A DNA stretch of 37,585 nucleotides, from the IMG/VR virus record IMGVR_UViG_2675903368_000016; one strand, given 5' to 3'. The notes below the pieces were generated by a model that was not told the DNA's origin, searched no databases, and saw only the letters and a list, made by a program, of their open reading frames with translations. A program made the position numbers and the translations under genes. The DNA comes from a virus. Lineage: Duplodnaviria; Heunggongvirae; Uroviricota; Caudoviricetes. Positions 8,830 to 37,585 of this stretch are shown here, in pieces (the stretch's first letter is position 1; each line of letters opens with the position of its first letter).

Positions 8830-10002
8830 TTACGCGCTGACCTGGCTGGCGAAATTCACCAGGTACTGATCGGTGATGCGCTGACGCAACATCAGATTTT
8901 CAAGTGGCGGCACTGGCGTGTAGTCGTAGTCGATGGTGAGTTTTCCGGCTTTCAGAGTGTCTTTGTCGTTCACCGACTCGTCCAGCCAGCAATCACCACC
9001 AATGAGATACCCCTGACTGACCAGGCTGCGCATTTTGGCGCGGATGCCCTCGATAATGTCGCGCGCCAGCGACGGGTTCAGCGGTTTGTCCACTGCCCAC
9101 ATGTGCGCTTCTGCCATTGTGTCCGTCAGCACCTGCGCCGTGCGGGTGTAGTTTTCGAAAGCAAAGAGCGGGTCATCACTCAGGCAGCGGGAACCCCAGA
9201 AGCGGAAACCGTCTTTACGCACAAGCGTGGTGACGTCGTTCTGGTTCAGCAGACCTGCATCGGTTGCCGGGTCCTGCAGATCCCAGAACACATCTGCAGA
9301 AATTCCGGTGACACCGTTCACGCCCACGTTGGACAGGCTTTTGTGCCACCCAGTCTGCTCATCAATTTTGGCACGCAGACCAAGCGCACGGGCGGTGGCA
9401 TATGCCGTTGCTTCGGCATTCAGCACCGTGTCCCAGCCAGTAAAGTCGGGCCAGATCAGCATTCCTTCGCGCTGGCTGAAGTTTTCACGGTAAGTGATCG
9501 CCTCCTGTACCGTCTTGCAGCCATACGCTGACAGGTAGGCAAACCCACGCAGGCTTTGCGCCACACTCAGCAACTCAGTCGCAACGGCTTTGTTATCGTG
9601 ACCTGGCACGCCGAGAATGCGCGGTTTAACGCCGAGCTGTGTCTGGGCAGATAACAGGGCTTTCATGCCTGTTTTTTTACCTTCAGCAGTCACTGCGCCG
9701 ATGATATTGGTCGTGGTTTCTTCTTCCGTTTCACCCTGCGGCACACGCACAACAACGGTCACGGGTTTTGCCTGGTCAGCGATGGCATCCAGCGAACGGG
9801 CCAGCGTGCCGGACTCACCCGCTTTACCGCTGGCAGTCAGCACATCAGTGATCAGCACGGGTTTATTAAGAGGAAACATTTTTGCATCGGCATCATCGCC
9901 CGTGCAGACCATGCCCACGATGGCGGTGCTCACCGTGGTAATGGATCGGGTACCTTCGTTGACTTCAACAACGCGCACCCCGTGGTGGTAATCCTGAGCC
10001 AT
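8830..10002 (-). CDS. FI: Contractile tail sheath protein gpFI
   Basis: 390-aa ORF; size and position fit the P2 sheath protein. Confidence 0.85.
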
Positions 10003-10078: not shown

Positions 10079-10096
10079 TGTACCGTTATTCACACA
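10079..10096. promoter_or_regulatory. Candidate Ogr-dependent late promoter element (TGT-N12-ACA) for the FI operon
   Basis: TGTaccgttattcacACA lies about 80 bp upstream of the FI start; same dyad type recurs upstream of V and O. Confidence 0.5.
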
Positions 10097-10144: not shown

Positions 10145-10717
10145 TCAGGGGGATTCATTACTCTTATTTGCCGGAAATTTTCTATAAATTGTGGAAACAC
10201 CCACATCAAAAATCAGTGCAATACGCTGTCTTGATTCTCCGGCCTCGAGTAAGCGTCCAATCTGTGCCCACTGTTCGGTGGTCAACTTAGGACGGCGTCC
10301 ACCTACTCTGCCTTTATCACGAGCTGCAGCCAGCCCCGCCCTGGTACGTTCAACTATCAGTTCGCGTTCCATTTCAGCCAGGGCCCCCATGACATGAAAA
10401 AAGAAACGGCCCATTGGGGTGCTGGTATCAATACTGTCAGTCAGGCTTCGGAAATTCACGCCACGCTGACGCAACTCTTCTATCAGCGTAACAAGATGCC
10501 GCATACTGCGCCCCAACCTGTCCAGCTTCCAGACAACCAGAGTGTCTCCTGCCGATAGTGTCCTGAGCAGTTTTTTAAGCCCCGGTCTGTCGGACTTAGT
10601 GCCACTGATTTTGTCCTCAAAAATCCGCTCACATCCCGCGCAGTTCAGTGCATTACGTTGCAAATCTGTGTTCTGGTCATTTGTTGACACGCGTACATAG
10701 CCAATAAGCATGATCAT
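10145..10717 (-). CDS. Serine DNA invertase, Hin/Gin/Pin/Cin family (copy 1)
   Basis: 190-aa ORF M(IM)LIGYVRVSTNDQNTDLQRNAL... with N-terminal catalytic Ser motif and C-terminal HTH; true start may be Met3. Confidence 0.9.
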   Translation of the reverse strand: MIMLIGYVRVSTNDQNTDLQRNALNCAGCERIFEDKISGTKSDRPGLKKLLRTLSAGDTLVVWKLDRLGRSMRHLVTLIEELRQRGVNFRSLTDSIDTSTPMGRFFFHVMGALAEMERELIVERTRAGLAAARDKGRVGGRRPKLTTEQWAQIGRLLEAGESRQRIALIFDVGVSTIYRKFPANKSNESP

Positions 10718-10738
10718 CTCCTTGAATAAAAATCGGGG

Positions 10739-11263
10739 ATGATGCCAGTTAGTCGTAATCGCTGCATTTTCTTATACGTTGGTTTGGGAGAAGGTTCGGC
10801 ATTACCCGTTGGTGTGCCTGTTCCATGGCCTTCAGCCACACCGCCAACAGGCTGGCTGAAATGCAACGGTGCGCCTTTTTCTGCAGAAGAATACCCGGAA
10901 CTGGCAAAGGCTTATCCAACAAATAAATTGCCTGATTTACGCGGTGAATTCATTCGCGGCTGGGATGATGGGCGCGGGGTGGATGCTGGTCGAGATTTGT
11001 TATCATCTCAAGGGGATGCAATAAGAAATATAACTGGAGGATTTAATATCAGACCTGGATCGAGCAGTGCTTTGATTACTTTCGCTGCTGGTGCTCTTAA
11101 AGTAGCATCAAGAGTTCAAAGTGCTTATGTCACAAACACTTCAGCCACTGACAAAATTGCTGAAGGTATAGACTTCGATGCCAGTGCTGCTCCTGGAGTT
11201 GTAACTGCATCTGAAAACCGTCCAAGAAATATCGCGTTTAACTACATTGTAAGGGCAGCATGA
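10739..11263 (+). CDS. Tail-fibre variable C-terminal module A (silent alternative receptor-binding domain)
   Basis: 174-aa ORF; after an 18-aa leader (MMPVSRNRCIFLYVGLGE) read from the invertase upstream region it continues ...PVPWPSATPPTGWLKCNGAPFSAEEYPELAKAYP, a tail-collar-type motif. Confidence 0.7.
   Translation: MMPVSRNRCIFLYVGLGEGSALPVGVPVPWPSATPPTGWLKCNGAPFSAEEYPELAKAYPTNKLPDLRGEFIRGWDDGRGVDAGRDLLSSQGDAIRNITGGFNIRPGSSSALITFAAGALKVASRVQSAYVTNTSATDKIAEGIDFDASAAPGVVTASENRPRNIAFNYIVRAA
10767..10792 (+). other. 26-bp invertase crossover site Z (hix/gix-like)
   Basis: TTTTCTTATACG-TT-GGTTTGGGAGAA, an imperfect dyad around a central TT; exact reverse complement of site Y. Confidence 0.7.
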
Positions 11264-11865
11264 TGAATAAAGTTGTATTAAATAGTGAGCTTATTGCTAC
11301 AAAGGCGGGGAGTGTTACCGTTTATAATTATGATGGCGAAACACGGGAATATATTGCCACATCAACTGAACATCTTGCTGTCGGTGTCGGTATCCCGGTA
11401 TGTTCTTGTTTAGATGCTCCGAGCTCAAACAAAGCTGGTTATGCAATCTGCCGTTCGGCAGATTTAAACTCATGGGAATATGTGCCAGACCATCGCGGTG
11501 AAACGGTCTATAGCACCGAAACAGGAGAATCAAAAGAAATCACCGCTCTGGGTGATTACCCTGAAAATACAACCACTATCGCCCCGTTAACGCCATATGA
11601 TAAATGGAATGGTGAAAAATGGGTGGCGGATACTGAGGCACAGCATAGCGCCGCAGTAGAAGCGGCAGAAGCACAGCGCCAGTCACTGATTGATGCTGCA
11701 ATGGCTTCCATTGGTCTGATTCAGCTGAAATTACAGGCCGGACGGAATCTGACGCAGGCAGAAACCGCCAGACTTAACGCTGCGCTGGATTACATTGACG
11801 CGGTGACGGCAACAGATACCAGCACGGCGCCGGATGTCATCTGGCCTGAACTGCCGGAGGCGTAG
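11260..11865 (+). CDS. Tail-fibre assembly chaperone, module A
   Basis: 201-aa ORF immediately after module A; conserved chaperone-type C-terminal end (...APDVIWPELPEA). Confidence 0.7.
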   Translation: MMNKVVLNSELIATKAGSVTVYNYDGETREYIATSTEHLAVGVGIPVCSCLDAPSSNKAGYAICRSADLNSWEYVPDHRGETVYSTETGESKEITALGDYPENTTTIAPLTPYDKWNGEKWVADTEAQHSAAVEAAEAQRQSLIDAAMASIGLIQLKLQAGRNLTQAETARLNAALDYIDAVTATDTSTAPDVIWPELPEA

Positions 11866-12277
11866 GCCATTCAATATCTGGCGCACTGGAAGTATCGACC
11901 AGTTCCAGTGCGTCCAGATAATCCAGCCACAAATTATATTGCGCCAGTTCCTCACCTTTCAGGCGACCAATCGCCGCTTTACCAGGCCATTGCTTACTGT
12001 GTGTGTATTCGTTGACCTGATTAATCAATTGCTGCTTTTCCAGTTCGGCTGCGGCAATTTGTTCCTCATGAGTTGGCGGTGGAATATCAATCCATGCAGG
12101 CATTCCGTCGATGACACCTCTGTATTTTCCTTCTGGTGCTTCCTTCATAAATTCGGCGGCAACAGTGTCGTCAATTTCGATTCCATCACCGGGCCATTCG
12201 CCGGATTCCTGATAAGCGATTTTAAGCTCCACAGGGAAAAACGCATTTTTATCGGCACTGAAAATATATTTCTGCAT
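11837..12277 (-). CDS. Tail-fibre assembly chaperone, module B (full length)
   Basis: 146-aa ORF MQKYIFSADKNAFFPVELKIAY... convergent with chaperone A; C-terminus ...APDIEWPTPPAVQAR. Confidence 0.7.
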   Translation of the reverse strand: MQKYIFSADKNAFFPVELKIAYQESGEWPGDGIEIDDTVAAEFMKEAPEGKYRGVIDGMPAWIDIPPPTHEEQIAAAELEKQQLINQVNEYTHSKQWPGKAAIGRLKGEELAQYNLWLDYLDALELVDTSSAPDIEWPTPPAVQAR

Positions 12278-12279
12278 TT

Positions 12280-12678
12280 CTACCGTCCTATCGAAATATA
12301 ACTGAATCTGTATTGCTGTGAGATATCACTGGTTGCCACACGCCACGCTGAATTACTGATATGTTCAAAATTTACAGACAAAACCTGCGGGGCAGGATTC
12401 GACGGGGCTGACTGAACGGCATCAGACATAACACTGACTGAAACCATCGGCTGATTAGGGAATGGTATAGGGAAGTGTCCACTGATAAAGCGGGTCGTGT
12501 TTCCTGAAAAAGTGCCAAACTGAACAATATATCCACCTGGTAGCCTGAACCATCCCGAACCAGAAGCGAATGCTCCCATATCCGGTATCTGATTATCTCC
12601 TGTGCCCACATCCCTTTTCGCCGCTTCTCCCAAACCAACGTATAAGAAAATGCAGCGATTACGACTAACTGGCATCAT
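12280..12678 (-). CDS. Tail-fibre variable C-terminal module B, stand-alone duplicate copy
   Basis: 132-aa ORF with the same 18-aa leader, then a sequence identical to the C-terminal 114 aa of H. Confidence 0.6.
   Translation of the reverse strand: MMPVSRNRCIFLYVGLGEAAKRDVGTGDNQIPDMGAFASGSGWFRLPGGYIVQFGTFSGNTTRFISGHFPIPFPNQPMVSVSVMSDAVQSAPSNPAPQVLSVNFEHISNSAWRVATSDISQQYRFSYISIGR
12625..12650 (-). other. 26-bp invertase crossover site Y (hybrid site)
   Basis: Plus strand TTCTCCCAAACC-AA-CGTATAAGAAAA; left half identical to site X, right half identical to reverse-complement Z, with identity switching at the central AA. Confidence 0.7.
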
Positions 12679-12699
12679 CCCCGATTTTTATTCAAGGAG

Positions 12700-13443
12700 A
12701 TGATCATGCTTATTGGCTATGTACGCGTGTCAACAAATGACCAGAACACAGATTTGCAACGTAATGCACTGAACTGCGCGGGATGTGAGCGGATTTTTGA
12801 GGACAAAATCAGTGGCACTAAGTCCGACAGACCGGGGCTTAAAAAACTGCTCAGGACACTATCGGCAGGAGACACTCTGGTTGTCTGGAAGCTGGACAGG
12901 TTGGGGCGCAGTATGCGGCATCTTGTTACGCTGATAGAAGAGTTGCGTCAGCGTGGCGTGAATTTCCGAAGCCTGACTGACAGTATTGATACCAGCACCC
13001 CAATGGGCCGTTTCTTTTTTCATGTCATGGGGGCCCTGGCTGAAATGGAACGCGAACTGATAGTTGAACGTACCAGGGCGGGGCTGGCTGCAGCTCGTGA
13101 TAAAGGCAGAGTAGGTGGACGCCGTCCTAAGTTGACCACCGAACAGTGGGCACAGATTGGACGCTTACTCGAGGCCGGAGAATCAAGACAGCGTATTGCA
13201 CTGATTTTTGATGTGGGTGTTTCCACAATTTATAGAAAATTTCCGGCAAATAAGAGTAATGAAGTATTTTCCTTCTGGTGCTTCCTTCATAAATTCGGCG
13301 GCAACAGTGTCGTCAATTTCGATTCCATCACCGGGCCATTCGCCGGATTCCTGATAAGCGATTTTAAGCTCCACAGGGAAAAACGCATTTTTATCGGCAC
13401 TGAAAATATATTTCTGCATTTCTACCGTCCTATCGAAATATAA
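12700..13443 (+). CDS. Serine DNA invertase copy 2, C-terminally fused to 59 aa read antisense through a truncated chaperone gene
   Basis: First 188 aa identical to copy 1 (nucleotide identity 12625-13263 = reverse complement of 10154-10792); diverges after ...FPANKSNE. Confidence 0.8.
   Translation: MIMLIGYVRVSTNDQNTDLQRNALNCAGCERIFEDKISGTKSDRPGLKKLLRTLSAGDTLVVWKLDRLGRSMRHLVTLIEELRQRGVNFRSLTDSIDTSTPMGRFFFHVMGALAEMERELIVERTRAGLAAARDKGRVGGRRPKLTTEQWAQIGRLLEAGESRQRIALIFDVGVSTIYRKFPANKSNEVFSFWCFLHKFGGNSVVNFDSITGPFAGFLISDFKLHREKRIFIGTENIFLHFYRPIEI
13264..13419 (-). pseudogene. Truncated tail-fibre assembly chaperone B (first 52 codons only)
   Basis: Sequence identical to the 5' end of the 11837-12277 gene, then abruptly joined to the 3' end of invertase copy 2. 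Confidence 0.7.
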
Positions 13444-14828
13444 CTGAATCTGTATTGCTGTGAGATATCACTGGTTGCCACACGCCACGCTGAATTACTG
13501 ATATGTTCAAAATTTACAGACAAAACCTGCGGGGCAGGATTCGACGGGGCTGACTGAACGGCATCAGACATAACACTGACTGAAACCATCGGCTGATTAG
13601 GGAATGGTATAGGGAAGTGTCCACTGATAAAGCGGGTCGTGTTTCCTGAAAAAGTGCCAAACTGAACAATATATCCACCTGGTAGCCTGAACCATCCCGA
13701 ACCAGAAGCGAATGCTCCCATATCCGGTATCTGATTATCTCCTGTGCCCACATCCCTTTTCGCCGCTTCTCCCAAACCAAGGTATGAGAGAAGACCAGCG
13801 ACATCCTTTCCACTCAAATTAGTCAGCGTATTGTCCAGCGGTTGTTTACCTGCCAGCGCATTAAGCATTGTCGTGGCAAAGTTCGGATCATTCCCCAGTG
13901 CCGCCGCCAGTTCGTTCAGTGTATCCAGTGCAGCAGGTGCAGACCCCACCATTGCTGCAATTGCCGATTTCACAAAAGCCGTGGTGGCAATCTGTGTATT
14001 GTTAACCGACTGTGCGGCAGTGGGGGCTGTTGGCGTTCCGGTGAGTGCCGGACTTGACAGCGGCGCTTTCAGTGCCAGCGCATTGTTAATGGTGGTACTG
14101 AATTTCGGATCATTGTTAATGGCTGCGGCTAATTCTTTCAGCGTGTCCAGCGTGGCTGGCGCACCATTAATCAGGGCCGTCAGTGCCGCCTGAACAAACG
14201 CGGTGGTCGCAACCTGCGTGGTGTTATTCCCTGCCGCTGGCGTTGGCGCTTTTGGTGTCCCGGTAAACGTCGGACTTTCTTTCTGTGCATACTGTGAATG
14301 CGGGTCCGGTGCGGCAAGATGTTTTGCCATCTGATCATCCACGTACACCTTCAGCTCCAGTACCTTGTCATCCACATACTTGCGGGTTGCCAGCACTACG
14401 GCAGGGTCGATTTTCAGGGTGATATTGTCCGTGCTGCTGGTAATCAGCACCATGCGCACGGTCTGGGTACGCCCGCTGCCTTCAGCCAGTTGCGGTTTAT
14501 AGCTTTCCGGGCAGTTCCCCACGGCAATCAATGCCCCTGACTCATCAAACAGGCCCACTTCACGTATCCACCAACCGCCCTCGTTTTCAGGGATCACCTG
14601 TTCAGCAATAATCTGGCTGCTGTTCTGCGGGTCGATATAGAGCATATTCAGCGCAGCCCGGCGTTTCTCATTTACCAGTGCCGTCTGCTTTGCGTCCGGC
14701 GTCGGCAATGCTCCGCCGCCATCGCCCACCGCCATATGGGTAATTTTTAGCGGCACACCGAGCGCGGCGGCGCTGGCAAGTTTCGCCGCGCCAATATCCG
14801 TCAGCAGGGTATAAAATTTTGTGCTCAT
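13422..14828 (-). CDS. H: Tail fibre protein gpH, currently carrying variable module B
   Basis: 468-aa ORF; constant N-terminal part with repeated ...TTAFV...APA.LDTL.ELAAA... motifs, then LGLGE junction and module B C-terminus. Confidence 0.85.
   Translation of the reverse strand: MSTKFYTLLTDIGAAKLASAAALGVPLKITHMAVGDGGGALPTPDAKQTALVNEKRRAALNMLYIDPQNSSQIIAEQVIPENEGGWWIREVGLFDESGALIAVGNCPESYKPQLAEGSGRTQTVRMVLITSSTDNITLKIDPAVVLATRKYVDDKVLELKVYVDDQMAKHLAAPDPHSQYAQKESPTFTGTPKAPTPAAGNNTTQVATTAFVQAALTALINGAPATLDTLKELAAAINNDPKFSTTINNALALKAPLSSPALTGTPTAPTAAQSVNNTQIATTAFVKSAIAAMVGSAPAALDTLNELAAALGNDPNFATTMLNALAGKQPLDNTLTNLSGKDVAGLLSYLGLGEAAKRDVGTGDNQIPDMGAFASGSGWFRLPGGYIVQFGTFSGNTTRFISGHFPIPFPNQPMVSVSVMSDAVQSAPSNPAPQVLSVNFEHISNSAWRVATSDISQQYRFSYISIGR
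13767..13792 (-). other. 26-bp invertase crossover site X inside H (constant/variable junction)
   Basis: Minus strand TTCTCTCATACC-TT-GGTTTGGGAGAA; half-sites match at 10 of 12 positions; encodes the LGLGE junction. Confidence 0.7.
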
Positions 14829-17298: not shown

Positions 17299-17316
17299 TG
17301 TATCAGTGCTGATACA
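17299..17316. promoter_or_regulatory. Candidate Ogr-dependent late promoter element (TGT-N12-ACA) for the V operon
   Basis: TGTatcagtgctgatACA, a near-perfect palindrome about 50 bp upstream of the V start, between S and V. Confidence 0.5.
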
Positions 17317-23205: not shown

Positions 23206-23223
23206 TGTACCGACAACCACACA
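23206..23223. promoter_or_regulatory. Candidate Ogr-dependent late promoter element (TGT-N12-ACA) in the divergent O/P intergenic region
   Basis: TGTaccgacaaccacACA, same dyad type as upstream of FI and V. Confidence 0.5.
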
Positions 23224-26655: not shown

Positions 26656-26827
26656 GGATCTTGAAACCTAATTTAAACTTGCTTGCGCGCGCTCGTATCC
26701 CCGCCACGCCTGCCCGCTTTATGTAGTAGTTTTCATGCAGGTGCATGATCTACGCGAAAGCCCGCCAGTTCTGGCGGGCCCTAGCAAAAACGATCCTCAA
26801 ACGATCATGCGATCTCATGCAGCATAG

Positions 26828-27559
26828 TCATGCACGATCATTTGACTCAGCATCTGCTGCACGCTTGCTGCGCGAAGATGCACTTTTACTATCAATCTTT
26901 CGACAGTTCTTTCTATCCCTGGCTTCATTTTCTTTAAATTTGTTATATGTCTCAGTATCAAAAAACGAAATTGTTTCAACCTCATCTTTTGGTATGAGCA
27001 CACGGAAATCTTCGATATTAAGCCGAGACATTCCACTTATCACACCACTATCAAGATAATGTTGGTGATAGTTAGTCGTGATACTAATCGTTAGATCATC
27101 TTTATCCCGATATCCGCTTAACATCGGGAGAAGTTCAAGGTGCTCTGAAAGCCCGTTTTCTAACGCCGGACAAGTAACAAGACCAACATAGATTTTGCGA
27201 GACGACAGAGTTGCTATGATCGGAAACTGTCTTGCGGACGCTTCCATGAGTAATGATTCGAAAGCGTTATTACCCACAGCTTTAGCTAAGGCATCCCAGC
27301 GACGATCTCCACGTGATGTGCGTAACTTATTTCCAAAACCTGAAATCGCAGCGAGGACAATTGAAATCATAACCCATGCTATCTGTTTGATTTCATTTAT
27401 TCTTTGAAGTTTGTCTTTCGATGAAGACAACATGCCATTAAAACTGTCAGGTGTTAGATTCAAGGCATTAGCCAGCCAACGAAACCCTCCGCTGACGTTC
27501 AAAATAAAGGTGAAAAAACCGCCAAGGAGAAAAAAAAACGATACCCCAGGCAGCCACAA
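26828..27559 (-). CDS. Membrane protein of unknown function, accessory cassette gene 2 (distal frame)
   Basis: 243-aa ORF with hydrophobic segments (FFFLLGGFFTFIL; IAWVMISIVLAAISGF) and a charged C-terminal domain; no ATG at the reported start. Confidence 0.55.
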   Translation of the reverse strand: MWLPGVSFFFLLGGFFTFILNVSGGFRWLANALNLTPDSFNGMLSSSKDKLQRINEIKQIAWVMISIVLAAISGFGNKLRTSRGDRRWDALAKAVGNNAFESLLMEASARQFPIIATLSSRKIYVGLVTCPALENGLSEHLELLPMLSGYRDKDDLTISITTNYHQHYLDSGVISGMSRLNIEDFRVLIPKDEVETISFFDTETYNKFKENEARDRKNCRKIDSKSASSRSKRAADAESNDRA

Positions 27560-27671
27560 AAAAATAAGCGTCCCAGCCGTTGGAACGCTTATATCGGTAT
27601 CTTGTTGAAAGTGATAGGTTTACATAAATAAAACCACTAACCAAAATCACTGCTAAAAGTAATGTTGCCAT
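27468..27671 (-). CDS. N-terminal transmembrane segment ORF, probably the 5' part of the same membrane-protein gene in another frame
   Basis: 67-aa ORF MATLLLAVILVSGFIYVNL...; its ATG overlaps the stop of the upstream 71-aa gene (TAATG); joins the 243-aa frame at a T7/T9 homopolymer region. Confidence 0.45.
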   Translation of the reverse strand: MATLLLAVILVSGFIYVNLSLSTRYRYKRSNGWDAYFFVAAWGIVFFSPWRFFHLYFERQRRVSLAG

Positions 27672-27886
27672 TATCTGGTTCTATTAGTTTTCTCTTTTAC
27701 AGTGCTCGTTTTGATGCCTTCAAGCTTATCCATCTGTGCCTTGATGGCATCCATTGCTCTTTTGTTAGACAAGTCTACGGACACAAAACCATCTTTACTA
27801 AGATTGAGTTTGTCCTGGTTCTCTTTAAGAACCCTTGCCAGACGTTCAACTGGGTTACCCAGGCTAAATGCGGCGATGCTTGACAT
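27671..27886 (-). CDS. Hypothetical 71-aa protein, accessory cassette gene 1
   Basis: ORF MSSIAAFSLGNPVERLARVLKENQDKLNL...; first gene of the leftward AT-rich operon. Confidence 0.5.
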   Translation of the reverse strand: MSSIAAFSLGNPVERLARVLKENQDKLNLSKDGFVSVDLSNKRAMDAIKAQMDKLEGIKTSTVKEKTNRTR

Positions 27887-28156
27887 AACTCCCCCTTTTC
27901 ACATGGCGCGGAAGTCTACACTCCGACGCCTACAACCTCAACAGATTATCTTTAAAATTTAGACAACAATATCATCTGTTGATTGCGTTACTTAAACTTA
28001 AGTTCAATGCGCTCGATCATGCAAGCTGTTTCTTAAGAACTGTTAATTTCCTGGCATATATAGTGGTTAAGGTAACAAATTGACACTAACGCCTCGCATA
28101 GCTCGTTGTTCAACCTTGCTGACGCCAGAAGCAAGTTCAGACGCCAGCAACGTTTC

Positions 28157-28390
28157 TTAATGCAGCCAGCTGTCGTCTTCCCACACCTTCTGCATAATTT
28201 TCATCACTTGTTTTCTTTCTTCGTCCAGTTGCAATCCGGTCAGTTCCACACCGTTAGAGCTACCTTTGCGGATACGAATTACCGTTTTGGGATACAGAGG
28301 ACGCAGATTGCGGTAAAGCTCGGATTCAAGGGCGTCCAGGGTAGACTGGCTAATCTTCTGCTCTTTATCGATCATTATTTCAATGCGCAT
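28157..28390 (-). CDS. DinI-family protein (186 Tum-like SOS-inducible anti-repressor module)
   Basis: 77-aa ORF MRIEIMIDKEQKISQSTLDALESELYRNL...KIMQKVWEDDSWLH resembles E. coli DinI along its length; downstream of a LexA box. Confidence 0.75.
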   Translation of the reverse strand: MRIEIMIDKEQKISQSTLDALESELYRNLRPLYPKTVIRIRKGSSNGVELTGLQLDEERKQVMKIMQKVWEDDSWLH

Positions 28391-28401
28391 AAAAAGTCAC
28401 C

Positions 28402-28590
28402 TCAACTGATGACATCCATTGAGCGGTTGTATTCGTGGGTTCTGATTTTTGCCATGAGTTCATCTGTTAGTTCAGAAACCCACTGCAAAGCCAGCCCCTT
28501 CTCTTCATCACTACACTCACTAGCCGCTACAAGCTTAAGAAAAAAATCAATGCGCTGGAGCTTCAAAGACTCCAAAAAATAGTCCTGCAT
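28402..28590 (-). CDS. Small protein co-transcribed with the DinI-like gene (possible Tum N-terminal module)
   Basis: 62-aa ORF starting 42 nt downstream of the LexA box and ending 11 nt before the DinI-like gene. Confidence 0.5.
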   Translation of the reverse strand: MQDYFLESLKLQRIDFFLKLVAASECSDEEKGLALQWVSELTDELMAKIRTHEYNRSMDVIS

Positions 28591-34156: not shown

Positions 34157-34753
34157 ATGTCAACATCAAAGTACCCAAGTGAGATCAAAATAAATCCCAA
34201 TAAAGGTGGTAAGGCTGCGATTGAGCGATTAGTCGAAGCCTATGGCTTTACGACACGACAGGCTTTAGCTGATCACTTGGAAGTATCAAAAAGCACACTA
34301 GCGAACAGGTATTTGCGGGATACATTTCCTGCTGACTGGATAATCCAATGTGCTCTTGAAACAGGAACCTCCCTCAAATGGTTAACTACCGGACAAGGCC
34401 TTAAGCAAAGCTCGCTGACAGCAGCTACAGAAGAGCTTGTTAAGTTTCGCCTTGCCGCAGGCAAAATGATTGAAGACGGTTCATATGTCTTCGATTCATC
34501 ATTTCTTCCTGCAAACCTTTCATCACCAATTGTTGTTCAGGATGGACTCGTCACATACATTTGTGATCAAAAATTTTCTGAAGTACTTGATGGAAACTGG
34601 TTAATCAATATCGACGGAACCTATTCCATTCGAAAAATCACAAGGCTTCCTAAAGGAATGATTAAAATTACAACGGCAGAGAATAGCTTTGAATGTGCAT
34701 TTTCTGATATTGAAGTGGTTGCTTGTATAAGAAGTACAATAGTCTCGAATTAA
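34157..34753 (+). CDS. cI: CI-type immunity repressor
   Basis: 198-aa ORF with N-terminal HTH (TTRQALADHLEVSKSTLANR), divergent from apl and upstream of int. Confidence 0.7.
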   Translation: MSTSKYPSEIKINPNKGGKAAIERLVEAYGFTTRQALADHLEVSKSTLANRYLRDTFPADWIIQCALETGTSLKWLTTGQGLKQSSLTAATEELVKFRLAAGKMIEDGSYVFDSSFLPANLSSPIVVQDGLVTYICDQKFSEVLDGNWLINIDGTYSIRKITRLPKGMIKITTAENSFECAFSDIEVVACIRSTIVSN

Positions 34754-34773: not shown

Positions 34774-36450
34774 ATGAATTCATTTGCCATCGTTATACTC
34801 TTATTAGCATTTCTCGCCCCTGTTCTAGCTGTAATATTATTTAAACAAAGTAAAAAACACAAAGCGGCTATAGATAACCTGACAGCTAACAACATAGCCC
34901 TTTCTAACCAACTGATTGAAAATCAAGAAAAACTAGCACAGACCGTACGAGAATTATCAGAGCTTGAAGGGCGAGCAGCACCATTGTGGCAATACGAAGA
35001 ATTGCACAGCGCAGTAATGGATGCAGAGAATAAGATAAAAAATGCGGACTCAATAGCCAAGCAAAAAATAGATGAAGCCCAAATTAAGGCGGCTAAAACA
35101 GTAAACGAAGCAAATTATCAAGCTCAGATGACAATAAGCAACGCTAATAGCGAAGCTATAGCAATCACCAAAGACGCTCGCGATGCACGCCTGAAAGCCA
35201 AAGAACGTCTTGATAATGCTAATAATAAAGCAAATGAGCTAATCTCAAATGCTAATGACAATGCAGTAAAAATTATTTCTGATGCAGAAGAAAGAGCAAA
35301 GGAGATTGCTGGTTCAGCATATGAAGCTAAAGAGTTTGCAGAAAAATATGAAGCAGTTGCAAAATCAATGAAAAATAAAATTGAAGGTTATGGTGATGAA
35401 TGGATCATCCCTAACCGTAGTGTACTTGATGAGCTGGCAGAAAATTATGAATTTACAGATGCAGGCAAGGAATTACAAAAAGCCAGAGAGTTAACCAAAT
35501 CATTAATAAAAACTAATAAAGCTGCTTCGTGTGATTATGTTGAGCAAAACAGGCGTAATACTGCCATAAACTTTGTTTTGGATGCCTTCAATGGAAGAGT
35601 TGACAGTATTTTATCAAAAGTCAAACACAACAATTTTGGAAAACTTTCCCAAGAAATAAAAGATGCATTTCAACTAGTAAATTACAATGGCTCTGCCTTT
35701 AGGTCCGCAAAAATAAGTGACATCTATCTTCAGGCAAGACTCAACGAGCTAAAATGGGGTGTAGCAGTTAATGAAATTATGCTCGAAGAAAAAGAAGAGC
35801 AAAGAAGGATTAAAGAACAGCTTCGTGAAGAGGAAAGAGCTCGTAGAGAATATGAAAAAGCGATAAAAGAAGCTGAAAAAGAAGAAAAAGCTATTCAGCA
35901 AGCTATAAATAAAGCAACGAAAGAACTTATGCTTGCAAATGAAGAACAACGCTTAGCTTTAGAGCAAAAAATAGCTGAACTACAGTTAAAATATGAAGAA
36001 GCTGAAGCTAAAAATCAACGAGCTATTTCTATGGCTCAACAAACCAGATCAGGCCACGTCTATATCATTAGTAATATTGGTTCATTTGGCGAAGATGTAT
36101 ATAAAATTGGAATGACACGCCGCCTTGAACCACTTGATCGTGTTCGTGAACTCGGAGATGCTAGTGTTCCTTTTTCGTTCGATGTTCATGCGATGATTTA
36201 TAGTGATGATGCACCATCATTAGAAAACCATCTGCATAAAGTTTTCAACGAAAAGCAGGTCAATAAAATTAACTCACGAAAAGAGTTTTTTAACGTAAAT
36301 TTAAAAGAAATCAAATCAGTTATTGAAGACATGAACATCAACGCCCACTGGACAATGTTTGCAGAGGCGAAAGAATATAGAGAGTCTCTAGCTATTGAGC
36401 AGGAGCGCAAAGCAGCCACTTCCGCCAACGATGAACTACATGTTGCTTAG
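34774..36450 (+). CDS. Membrane-anchored coiled-coil protein with C-terminal GIY-YIG-like (T5orf172-type) domain; lysogeny-operon moron
   Basis: 558 aa: N-terminal TM helix, long coiled coil rich in A/E/K/N, C-terminal GHVYIISN...YKIGMTRRLEPLDRVRELG...; AT-rich; 20 nt after the cI stop. Confidence 0.7.
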   Translation: MNSFAIVILLLAFLAPVLAVILFKQSKKHKAAIDNLTANNIALSNQLIENQEKLAQTVRELSELEGRAAPLWQYEELHSAVMDAENKIKNADSIAKQKIDEAQIKAAKTVNEANYQAQMTISNANSEAIAITKDARDARLKAKERLDNANNKANELISNANDNAVKIISDAEERAKEIAGSAYEAKEFAEKYEAVAKSMKNKIEGYGDEWIIPNRSVLDELAENYEFTDAGKELQKARELTKSLIKTNKAASCDYVEQNRRNTAINFVLDAFNGRVDSILSKVKHNNFGKLSQEIKDAFQLVNYNGSAFRSAKISDIYLQARLNELKWGVAVNEIMLEEKEEQRRIKEQLREEERARREYEKAIKEAEKEEKAIQQAINKATKELMLANEEQRLALEQKIAELQLKYEEAEAKNQRAISMAQQTRSGHVYIISNIGSFGEDVYKIGMTRRLEPLDRVRELGDASVPFSFDVHAMIYSDDAPSLENHLHKVFNEKQVNKINSRKEFFNVNLKEIKSVIEDMNINAHWTMFAEAKEYRESLAIEQERKAATSANDELHVA

Positions 36451-36532: not shown

Positions 36533-37585
36533 ATGGCAGTACGAAAACTAACCACAGGGAAATGGCTTTGCGAATGTTACCCCGCCGGACGAAGTGGGCG
36601 TCGTGTGCGTAAACAATTCGCCACCAAAGGCGAAGCACTGGCTTTTGAGCGCCACACGATGGAAGAAACCGAAGCAAAGCCCTGGCTGGGTGAATCAGTG
36701 GATCGTCGAACACTGAAAGACGTGGTTGAGCTATGGTTCAAACTACATGGTAAATCTCTGACAGCTGGGCAGCATGTCTATGACAAATTGCTGTTGATGG
36801 TTGACGCTCTGGGCAATCCTCTTGCAACCGATCTCACCTCTAAAATGTTTGCCCACTATCGAGATAAACGCCTGACAGGCGAGATCTACTTCAGCGAGAA
36901 ATGGAAGAAAGGAGCAAGCCCGGTCACCATTAACCTGGAGCAAAGCTATCTAAGTAGTGTTTTTAGCGAACTATCCCGTCTGGGCGAATGGTCGTATCCG
37001 AACCCACTGGAGAACATGCGAAAATTCACCATCGCAGAAAAAGAGATGGCATGGCTTACCCATGAGCAGATTGTTGAATTGCTGGCTGATTGCAAACGTC
37101 AGGACCCAATTCTGGCACTGGTAGTTAAGATATGCTTAAGCACAGGCGCACGCTGGCGTGAAGCCGTAAATCTTACCCGCTCACAGGTGACCAAATACCG
37201 AATTACCTTTGTCAGAACGAAGGGGAAGAAAAACAGAAGCATCCCTATCAGTAAAGAGCTTTACGAAGAGATCATGGCGCTTGATGGGTTCAATTTCTTC
37301 ACAGACTGCTATTTTCAATTTTTATCCGTGATGGAAAAAACGTCTATCGTGCTCCCTCGCGGTCAACTCACACACGTTCTGCGCCATACGTTTGCGGCGC
37401 ACTTCATGATGTCGGGTGGAAACATTCTGGCCTTACAAAAAATTCTCGGACACCACGATATAAAAATGACTATGCGTTACGCACATCTGGCACCGGATCA
37501 TCTAGAAACGGCGCTCCGTTTCAATCCTCTGGCAACGCTGCCAAGTGGCGACAAAGTGGCGGCAGCGGTTGGCATTACCCCGTAA
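36533..37585 (+). CDS. int: Tyrosine integrase (P2/186 family)
   Basis: 350-aa ORF with ...LSTGARWREA...LRHTFAAHFMMSGGNILALQKILGHHDIKMTMRYAHL... (conserved R...H-x-x-R...Y residues); stop is the last codon of the window. Confidence 0.9.
   Translation: MAVRKLTTGKWLCECYPAGRSGRRVRKQFATKGEALAFERHTMEETEAKPWLGESVDRRTLKDVVELWFKLHGKSLTAGQHVYDKLLLMVDALGNPLATDLTSKMFAHYRDKRLTGEIYFSEKWKKGASPVTINLEQSYLSSVFSELSRLGEWSYPNPLENMRKFTIAEKEMAWLTHEQIVELLADCKRQDPILALVVKICLSTGARWREAVNLTRSQVTKYRITFVRTKGKKNRSIPISKELYEEIMALDGFNFFTDCYFQFLSVMEKTSIVLPRGQLTHVLRHTFAAHFMMSGGNILALQKILGHHDIKMTMRYAHLAPDHLETALRFNPLATLPSGDKVAAAVGITP

Follow-up and report, generated by a model that had tools for sequence, protein, structure and literature searches.

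At the tail-fibre switch of a P2-like E. coli prophage, a second invertase gene marks one end of a duplicated block that was probably produced by sequence assembly

The tail-fibre switch and its crossover sites

The stretch of DNA analysed here, which we call the window, is 37,585 bases long in total and consists of a chromosomal P2-like E. coli prophage with flanking host DNA. The prophage reaches as far as 37585, where the integrase stop codon lies. The features that bear on the tail-fibre inversion switch are listed in the order of the window.

1-2791: host DNA, including ybjM (288-665) and ybjL (935-2620)
8830-10002, minus strand: sheath gene
10145-10717, minus strand: invertase copy 1, complete, 190 aa from the first ATG (Resolvase, E 1e-52 (7e-53); HTH_7, E 1e-15)
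10739-11263, plus strand: SvB, the silent fibre C-terminal module (Collar domain)
10767-10792: crossover site R, 26 bp, TTTTCTTATACG TT GGTTTGGGAGAA
11260-11865, plus strand: chaperone UB, the partner of SvB (Caudo_TAP)
11837-12277, minus strand: chaperone UA, full length, 146 aa (Caudo_TAP)
12280-12678, minus strand: orphan copy of SvA, the C-terminal module of H, 132 aa (Gp53-like_C)
12625-12650: crossover site M, an exact inverted copy of R, in direct orientation with respect to L
12700-13443, plus strand: invertase copy 2, a fusion ORF of 247 aa (Resolvase PF00239, E 1.7e-52; HTH_7)
13183-13419, minus strand: 78-aa ORF made of truncated chaperone UA (~52 aa) and antisense invertase (Caudo_TAP at only E 0.01, profile positions 2-44 of 131)
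13422-14828, minus strand: tail-fibre gene H, 468 aa, now fused to SvA (Phage_tail_fib, Gp53-like_C)
13767-13792: crossover site L, within H, encoding the conserved ...GLGE... motif

The switch around these genes is of the Mu G/P1 C (Mu-Gin/P1-Cin) type, which is already well known, and is otherwise standard. As expected of a host-range switch, a constant fibre N-terminus is combined with two C-terminal modules that lie with their cognate chaperones in mirror-image order. The form of H present in the window, H-SvA (468 aa), belongs with UA, and an inversion between R and L would fuse SvB to H to give H-SvB (510 aa; state S3 below), which belongs with UB. In related prophages SvA is followed by the second site and then by the constant part of H. 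The orphan SvA ORF has a fortuitous start codon that lies outside site M. The exact H protein occurs in four contigs; the one of these whose layout was compared (L004) has the normal single-invertase arrangement.

When the whole window was scanned, R, M and L were the only positions to score 24/24 against the crossover half-sites. They have the properties of invertase sites, being 26 bp long with imperfect dyad symmetry and a TT/AA core, and R has the opposite orientation to M and L. The sites compare well with the 26-bp sites tabulated in PMC4134206 (Table 3), which share the form of site R.

The two invertase genes and the duplicated block

Copy 1 and copy 2 are identical over invertase residues 1-188. 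Both keep 76 nt of native upstream sequence, the HTH_7 domain (PF02796, residues 140-183 in each) and the catalytic domain, where the two read MLIGYVRVSTNDQ with the nucleophilic serine in the YxRVST motif. In the near-identical locus L004 the gene caller chose the MLIGY start, which gives a protein of 188 aa. The invertase aligns to the structures of phage Mu Gin (3UJ3/4M6F) from Gin residue 1 over 184 residues (E 1e-92); Mu Gin runs nine residues beyond the aligned end, so that some short variation in tail length is natural. Across assemblies, the identical invertase occurs beside the segment in one orientation (L005/L006) or the other (L004/L007).

The preliminary description had placed the copy 2 ORF at 12700-13443 with antisense chaperone sequence fused to its C-terminus, and the ORFs and the repeat identity bear this out. 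Positions 12700-13263 encode invertase residues 1-188, and positions 13264-13443 add 59 codons and a stop antisense to UA. Comparison with copy 1, which ends in ...KSNESP*, likewise upholds the claim that copy 2 lacks the native last two residues (SP) and the stop: it reads ...KSNE/VFSFWCF... and stays open for 59 codons until it meets a TAA (13441-13443). The junction thus falls after residue 188, five residues beyond the HTH_7 domain. The tail is identical to part of a 155-aa antisense ORF (11834-12301) across the full-length chaperone, and it stays open for 59 codons because the antisense strand of the chaperone holds a long accidental ORF. It contains 11 Phe in 59 residues and has a GRAVY of +0.33, compared with -0.37 for the invertase. 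The domain search found no family match for the tail, and there was no match to a solved structure past residue 186. AlphaFold2 prediction on the fusion, with no alignment given, returned a mean pLDDT of 37 and a pTM of 0.29, values too low to support any statement on the tail. The 59-codon extension is a chance read-through of the duplication junction.

Copy 2 is convergent with H, the two ORFs overlapping by 22 nt, and is antisense in the stretch that an H transcript would cross. To this extent the earlier picture of the locus stands, but the module B and chaperone B that it placed farther downstream are not different ones. Positions 12280-12678 repeat the module of H itself exactly, and positions 11837-12277 hold the full-length form of the chaperone whose truncated form lies at 13183-13419. 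The 78-aa ORF, which sits between copy 2 and H on the minus strand, is the mirror product of the copy 2 fusion.

Rather than forming a gene arrangement of its own, copy 2 lies at one end of a 1,142-nt block that is present twice. The repeats and their junction are as follows.

10154-10793 and 12624-13263: inverted repeat, 640 nt, 100% identical, holding the crossover site, the adjoining intergenic region and all of the invertase gene except its last 9 nt
12122-12638 and 13264-13780: direct repeat, 517 nt, 100% identical, holding SvA, flanked by the 5' part of UA and by the inner half of the crossover site
13263/13264: the only novel junction, …AGTAATGAA/GTATTTTCC…, with zero microhomology and no N

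Exact repeat extension found the arms identical at 640/640 nt on the invertase side and at 517/517 nt on the fibre/chaperone side, and their likeness is therefore not due to chance. The two arms share 15 nt in the crossover core, so that 640 + 517 - 15 = 1,142, the period of the direct repeat. Within the block lie the invertase gene (all but 9 nt), the intergenic region and crossover site that adjoin it, SvA, and ~156 nt from the start of UA. If a Fis-dependent enhancer is present in the 5' part of the invertase gene, it is duplicated too. Deletion of 12639-13780 gives the canonical order sheath-invertase-site-SvB-UB-UA'-SvA'-site-H.

The junction was absent from 5,426 complete E. coli genomes, 50,697 phage records and 72,556 plasmids, and also from IMG/VR, the GTDB species representatives and the JGI metagenomes. 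An exact look-up in the protein collection returned no record of the 247-aa and 245-aa invertase fusions or of the 78-aa chaperone fusion. The junction is private to the window, and its absence elsewhere cannot by itself separate an artefact from a real event.

Origin of the duplication

The canonical order is found in many complete E. coli genomes at 95-98% identity and in hundreds of E. coli prophages (for example L002 and L003). The closest complete E. coli genome is 98.0% identical, and none of the complete genomes is from the same strain. The public draft GCA_001284645.2 (L004) has the canonical form and differs from the block-deleted window by one mismatch in 13,407 nt. Two further loci, L005 and L006, are normal flipped-isomer prophages with an identical invertase, and in them the 132-aa SvA ORF adjoins the invertase as it does at 12280-13263 of the window. 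Read on the opposite strand, 12122-13263 is identical to an uninterrupted piece of the flipped isomer (L005), and the sequence from 13264 onward is that of the unflipped isomer (L004). Draft assemblies often break at this locus: among the eight contigs with an identical invertase, six end within the segment or at a crossover site.

The most likely reading, with a probability of roughly 70%, is that the duplication is an assembly artefact. The sequenced culture would have held both orientations of the invertible segment. One contig would have run from the invertase flank through the segment and, by way of reads from the flipped isomer, back into the invertase flank in reverse, and would have stopped at an arbitrary point, 13263. 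A second contig would have begun at another arbitrary point within the segment, 13264, and run into H. The two would then have been abutted without a gap, with the invertase frame reading across the join. The locus has the marks expected of such an artefact: identical arms, a homology-free junction at arbitrary positions, and sides that are each consistent with one isomer. The preliminary description had itself named an assembly artefact as the outcome that would undo its proposal; this outcome is now the favoured one, although it is unproven.

The location and form of the junction also point to assembly. An artefact would be expected precisely at a crossover site, and by our estimate a real 1.1-kb duplication placed at random in the 37.6-kb window would span one of the two sites in about 6% of cases. 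Zero microhomology is unusual for spontaneous bacterial tandem duplications and fits a join better. A precedent exists in EC958, where ~50% of reads in the alternative orientation gave rise to spurious contigs and where artefactual duplication from chained contigs of alternative orientation was warned of (PMC4134206).

Related loci provide a closer precedent. We fetched 80 IMG/VR loci, all encoding this invertase, and found more than one invertase match in six. An N was present in only four of the 80 (L040, L033, L084 and L067), and a single N marked each non-biological junction examined in these four. L040, L033 and L084 contain 100%-identical duplications of the same kind as the window, and the duplication in L067 excludes the invertase. 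One of the 80, L040, has the exact topology of the window, sheath-invertase-site-segment-site-invertase'-121 nt of sheath'-N-partial segment-site-H, with an inverted repeat of 912 nt, a direct repeat of 799 nt and a period of 1,697 nt. The other three carry related chains of isomer pieces, and in L033 the N links the sheath straight to H, an adjacency that is impossible in any isomer. These loci look like scaffold joins of contigs from two inversion isomers, so that in related loci this topology is demonstrably a product of assembly. They share with the window the 100%-identical duplications over a crossover site and the homology-free junction at arbitrary positions. They differ in marking each join by a single N, whereas the window has no N anywhere and hence no gap marker. 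An N-free join requires a pipeline that silently concatenates contigs or closes gaps, and no example of one was found among the 80 loci. We infer that the N-free join of the window arose in the same way as the N-marked ones.

Any such join is formally identical to a tandem duplication followed by inversion, and therefore the anatomy of the locus alone cannot discriminate between the two. The reading that must chiefly be weighed against an artefact, and which we consider unlikely though well short of negligible, is that a real and very recent tandem duplication of 1,142 nt took place in the flipped isomer by illegitimate recombination, from 9 nt inside the 3' end of the invertase to ~156 nt into UA, followed by inversion between the outermost sites. 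In simulation, a canonical locus taken through R x L inversion, tandem duplication of 10154-11295 and outer-site inversion reproduced all 37,585 bases exactly. A tandem-inversion-duplication model was also considered and set aside in favour of tandem duplication with site-specific inversion, as it needs two novel junctions and one exists. We enumerated computationally the deletion product and the four inversion states that a real three-site locus would have.

S1 (the window): H carries SvA and is followed by truncated UA; full-length UA lies 1.1 kb farther downstream, on the far side of the antisense invertase
S2: H again carries SvA and is followed by truncated UA, but full-length UA is encoded on the opposite strand
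S3: H-SvB with UB
S4: H-SvA with intact UA

The N-free junction and the two invertases, each with its catalytic domain, HTH_7 and native upstream sequence, agree with a real event, and a natural three-site, four-variant P2-like switch in EPEC E2348/69 (PMC4272514) makes multi-site behaviour mechanistically plausible. The event would nevertheless have to be a private one, with repeats still 100% identical and a junction found in none of the collections searched. It would have arisen with zero microhomology and, against odds of about 6%, across a crossover site, and scaffolding demonstrably yields the same topology in related loci. No selective benefit is apparent, and in two of the four states H-SvA is parted from intact UA. 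A real duplication of this kind should be unstable, because the wild type is regained when the direct repeats, or sites M and L, recombine with each other. Were it real, a late H transcript in S1 would indeed run antisense across copy 2, and such an RNA would also be complementary to copy 1, that is, to both of the identical invertase genes. It is doubtful, on balance, that the prophage was caught just after a duplication and one inversion, as a three-site, two-invertase, four-state switch.

Two further readings are both far less probable than a duplication by illegitimate recombination. A real duplication might have been made by the invertase itself, acting either at quasi crossover sites or on two sites of which a passing replication fork had copied only one; an inversion of the latter kind could yield an invertase-segment-invertase' path. 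Quasi-site recombination has been documented for Cin (Iida and Hiestand-Nauer 1986, 1987, as cited in PMC4134206), and the fork route is our own suggestion, which parallels the Futcher model of the yeast 2-micron plasmid. However, the half-site scores at the parental breakpoints, 9 and 11 out of 24, lie within the background (mean 7.4, 95th percentile 11), and the quasi-site hypothesis was rejected for this reason. The central dinucleotide is not shared at the breakpoints, and a junction made by a recombinase should fall at a site rather than 625 and 517 nt away. We regard this origin as very improbable.

More improbable still is an evolved functional arrangement in which convergent late transcription silences copy 2 and the 59-residue tail modifies its activity. 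Only the geometry of the locus speaks for it. TGT-N12-ACA dyads at 17299 and 10079 lie where the P2 late promoters PV and PF would be expected, consistent with H in a minus-strand late operon, presumably that of PV, and altogether three such dyads fall where PF, PV and PO/PP are expected, which weakly supports this placement of H; the dyads are nevertheless not enriched in the window (13 found versus 9.5 expected). In the promoter scan, promoter-like matches were no commoner than in shuffled sequence (6 versus 6.2). The terminator scan, which is weak evidence, gave weak stems of 5-7 bp, several of them inside coding sequence and double-counted through the duplication, and predicted no convincing terminator between H and copy 2. 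The copies are undiverged over 640/640 nt, so that no evolutionary time has passed, and the tail, which is hydrophobic and rich in Phe, comes from the antisense strand of the chaperone gene and matches no family or structure. The arrangement occurs in none of thousands of related prophages and is missing from the near-identical L004; this lack of conservation effectively refutes it. The proposal that a second invertase had been shaped by convergent late transcription and carried a meaningful extension accordingly finds no support, the duplication being private, 100% identical and absent from L004.

Comparison with known invertible tail-fibre switches

With an assembly artefact as the preferred reading, the second invertase gene is probably not a biological feature. 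Whichever reading holds, invertible tail-fibre regions repeatedly give rise to false duplications in publicly deposited prophages, as in four of the 80 related IMG/VR loci. Such duplications can produce spurious fusion genes, extra invertases and truncated chaperones that annotation pipelines and sequence scans take at face value. A simple rule flags them: where a duplicated block spans a crossover site, its arms are 100% identical and the two sides of the junction each match one isomer, chained contigs should be suspected. A real duplication would be a modestly interesting, unstable intermediate, a snapshot of one path from two-site to multi-site switches such as p15B Min and the three-repeat switch of EPEC.

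The EPEC E2348/69 switch resembles the window in having three sites and four states, which were measured in EPEC (PMC4272514) and enumerated here. EPEC and p15B Min differ, however, in carrying extra distinct fibre modules and diverged repeats, whereas the window has exact copies and gains no new fibre variant. Although the window holds three sites, M duplicates R exactly, as its module duplicates SvA, and the enumeration gives only two H variants across the four inversion states. Two of these four states merely disrupt the pairing of fibre and chaperone.

P2-like E. coli prophages offer a further close comparison. Fels-2 Fin of Salmonella is another P2-like invertible tail-fibre region. The E. 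coli representatives, for example EC958 Phi2, share with the window the order sheath-invertase-site-Sv'-U'-U-Sv-site-H, and none of them has the duplicated block or the 13263/13264 junction. The crossover sites of EC958 Phi2 have the same form as those of the window (PMC4134206).

The wider family is represented by Mu G/Gin, P1 C/Cin and e14 P/Pin, in which, as in the window, a serine invertase acts on inverted 26-bp sites with a 2-bp core. One site lies in the fibre gene at ...GLGE... and the other adjoins the invertase gene, and the two fibre C-termini, each with its own Caudo_TAP chaperone, are arranged as mirror images. The host phage differs, being P2-like in the window and Mu or P1 in the classical systems. 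The window further differs from Mu, P1 and e14 in its third site and its second, altered invertase, both of which are gone once the 1,142-nt block is removed.

Invertase start and read-through

The start of the invertase gene differs between public annotations, with a product of 190 aa beginning MIMLIGY (copy 1 in the window, 10145-10717) versus one of 188 aa beginning MLIGY (L004:8976-9542, in GCA_001284645.2). Since the alignment of Mu Gin to the invertase starts at MLIGY, the real protein probably has 188 aa. The read-through of invertase copy 2 involves an open frame opposite UA, the full-length tail-fibre chaperone gene:

11834-12301, plus strand, 155-aa ORF antisense to UA and spanning the entire gene

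This ORF is an accidental open frame, and because of it the read-through reaches a stop only after 59 codons.

A further locus, L001 (CP019275.1), carries an invertase annotated as frameshifted, in two separate features. The record was deposited as a circular plasmid of 37,446 bp, 'plasmid p13P477T-2', and is a complete P2-like phage genome.

Duplications and paired invertases in related loci

False-looking, 100%-identical duplications around the crossover site, the 26-bp invertase site, were present in 4 of 80 related public provirus records (IMG/VR loci L040, L033, L084, and L067). Every non-biological junction examined in these four records was marked by a single N, and their duplications point to a data-quality problem that recurs where tail-fibre loci are invertible.

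Two other IMG/VR loci place an invertible fibre segment between two invertase genes:

L035:3450-6573, invertible fibre segment
L099:3583-6558, invertible fibre segment

The flanking invertase genes are inverted relative to each other and diverged, with 79-82% nucleotide identity over ~540 nt. Neither segment contains an N, and in neither does the constant part of the tail-fibre gene H adjoin it. In contrast to the window, this arrangement looks real. It may be what is left of a prophage, or it may have arisen when the crossover sites of two different prophages underwent site-specific recombination. Part of the sheath gene is also absent from L035.

Cargo regions, insertion site, and late-promoter-like dyads

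Two regions of the prophage hold the following genes:

34774-36450, plus strand, 558-aa protein with DUF4041 (SNIPE) and T5orf172/MUG113 domains
26828-27559, minus strand, ORF
28106-28582, plus strand, ORF
26745-27059, plus strand, ORF

The 558-aa protein is probably an anti-phage defence gene product. Its gene is flanked by those for the CI-type repressor (34157-34753) and the integrase, in a variable cargo site that holds an AAA ATPase, DUF262, or a retron effector in related prophages. The three ORFs listed from 26745-28582 had no Pfam match; this stretch, between the portal/terminase genes and replication gene A, is likewise a place where P2-like phages carry variable cargo.

The prophage is inserted between host ybjL, within the host DNA at 1-2791, and a TetR-family gene; uninfected genomes (L017-L020) have this gene after ybjL. 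At the other end (36533-37585), the last base of the window is exactly the end of the integrase stop codon, suggesting that the window was excised by a provirus-prediction tool.

Overall enrichment of TGT-N12-ACA was not found across the window. Three such dyads are located as follows:

10079-10096, upstream of the sheath gene
17299-17316, upstream of the baseplate V gene
23206-23223, between the capsid-scaffold and terminase genes

The three positions match the expected places of the P2 late promoters PF, PV, and PO/PP.
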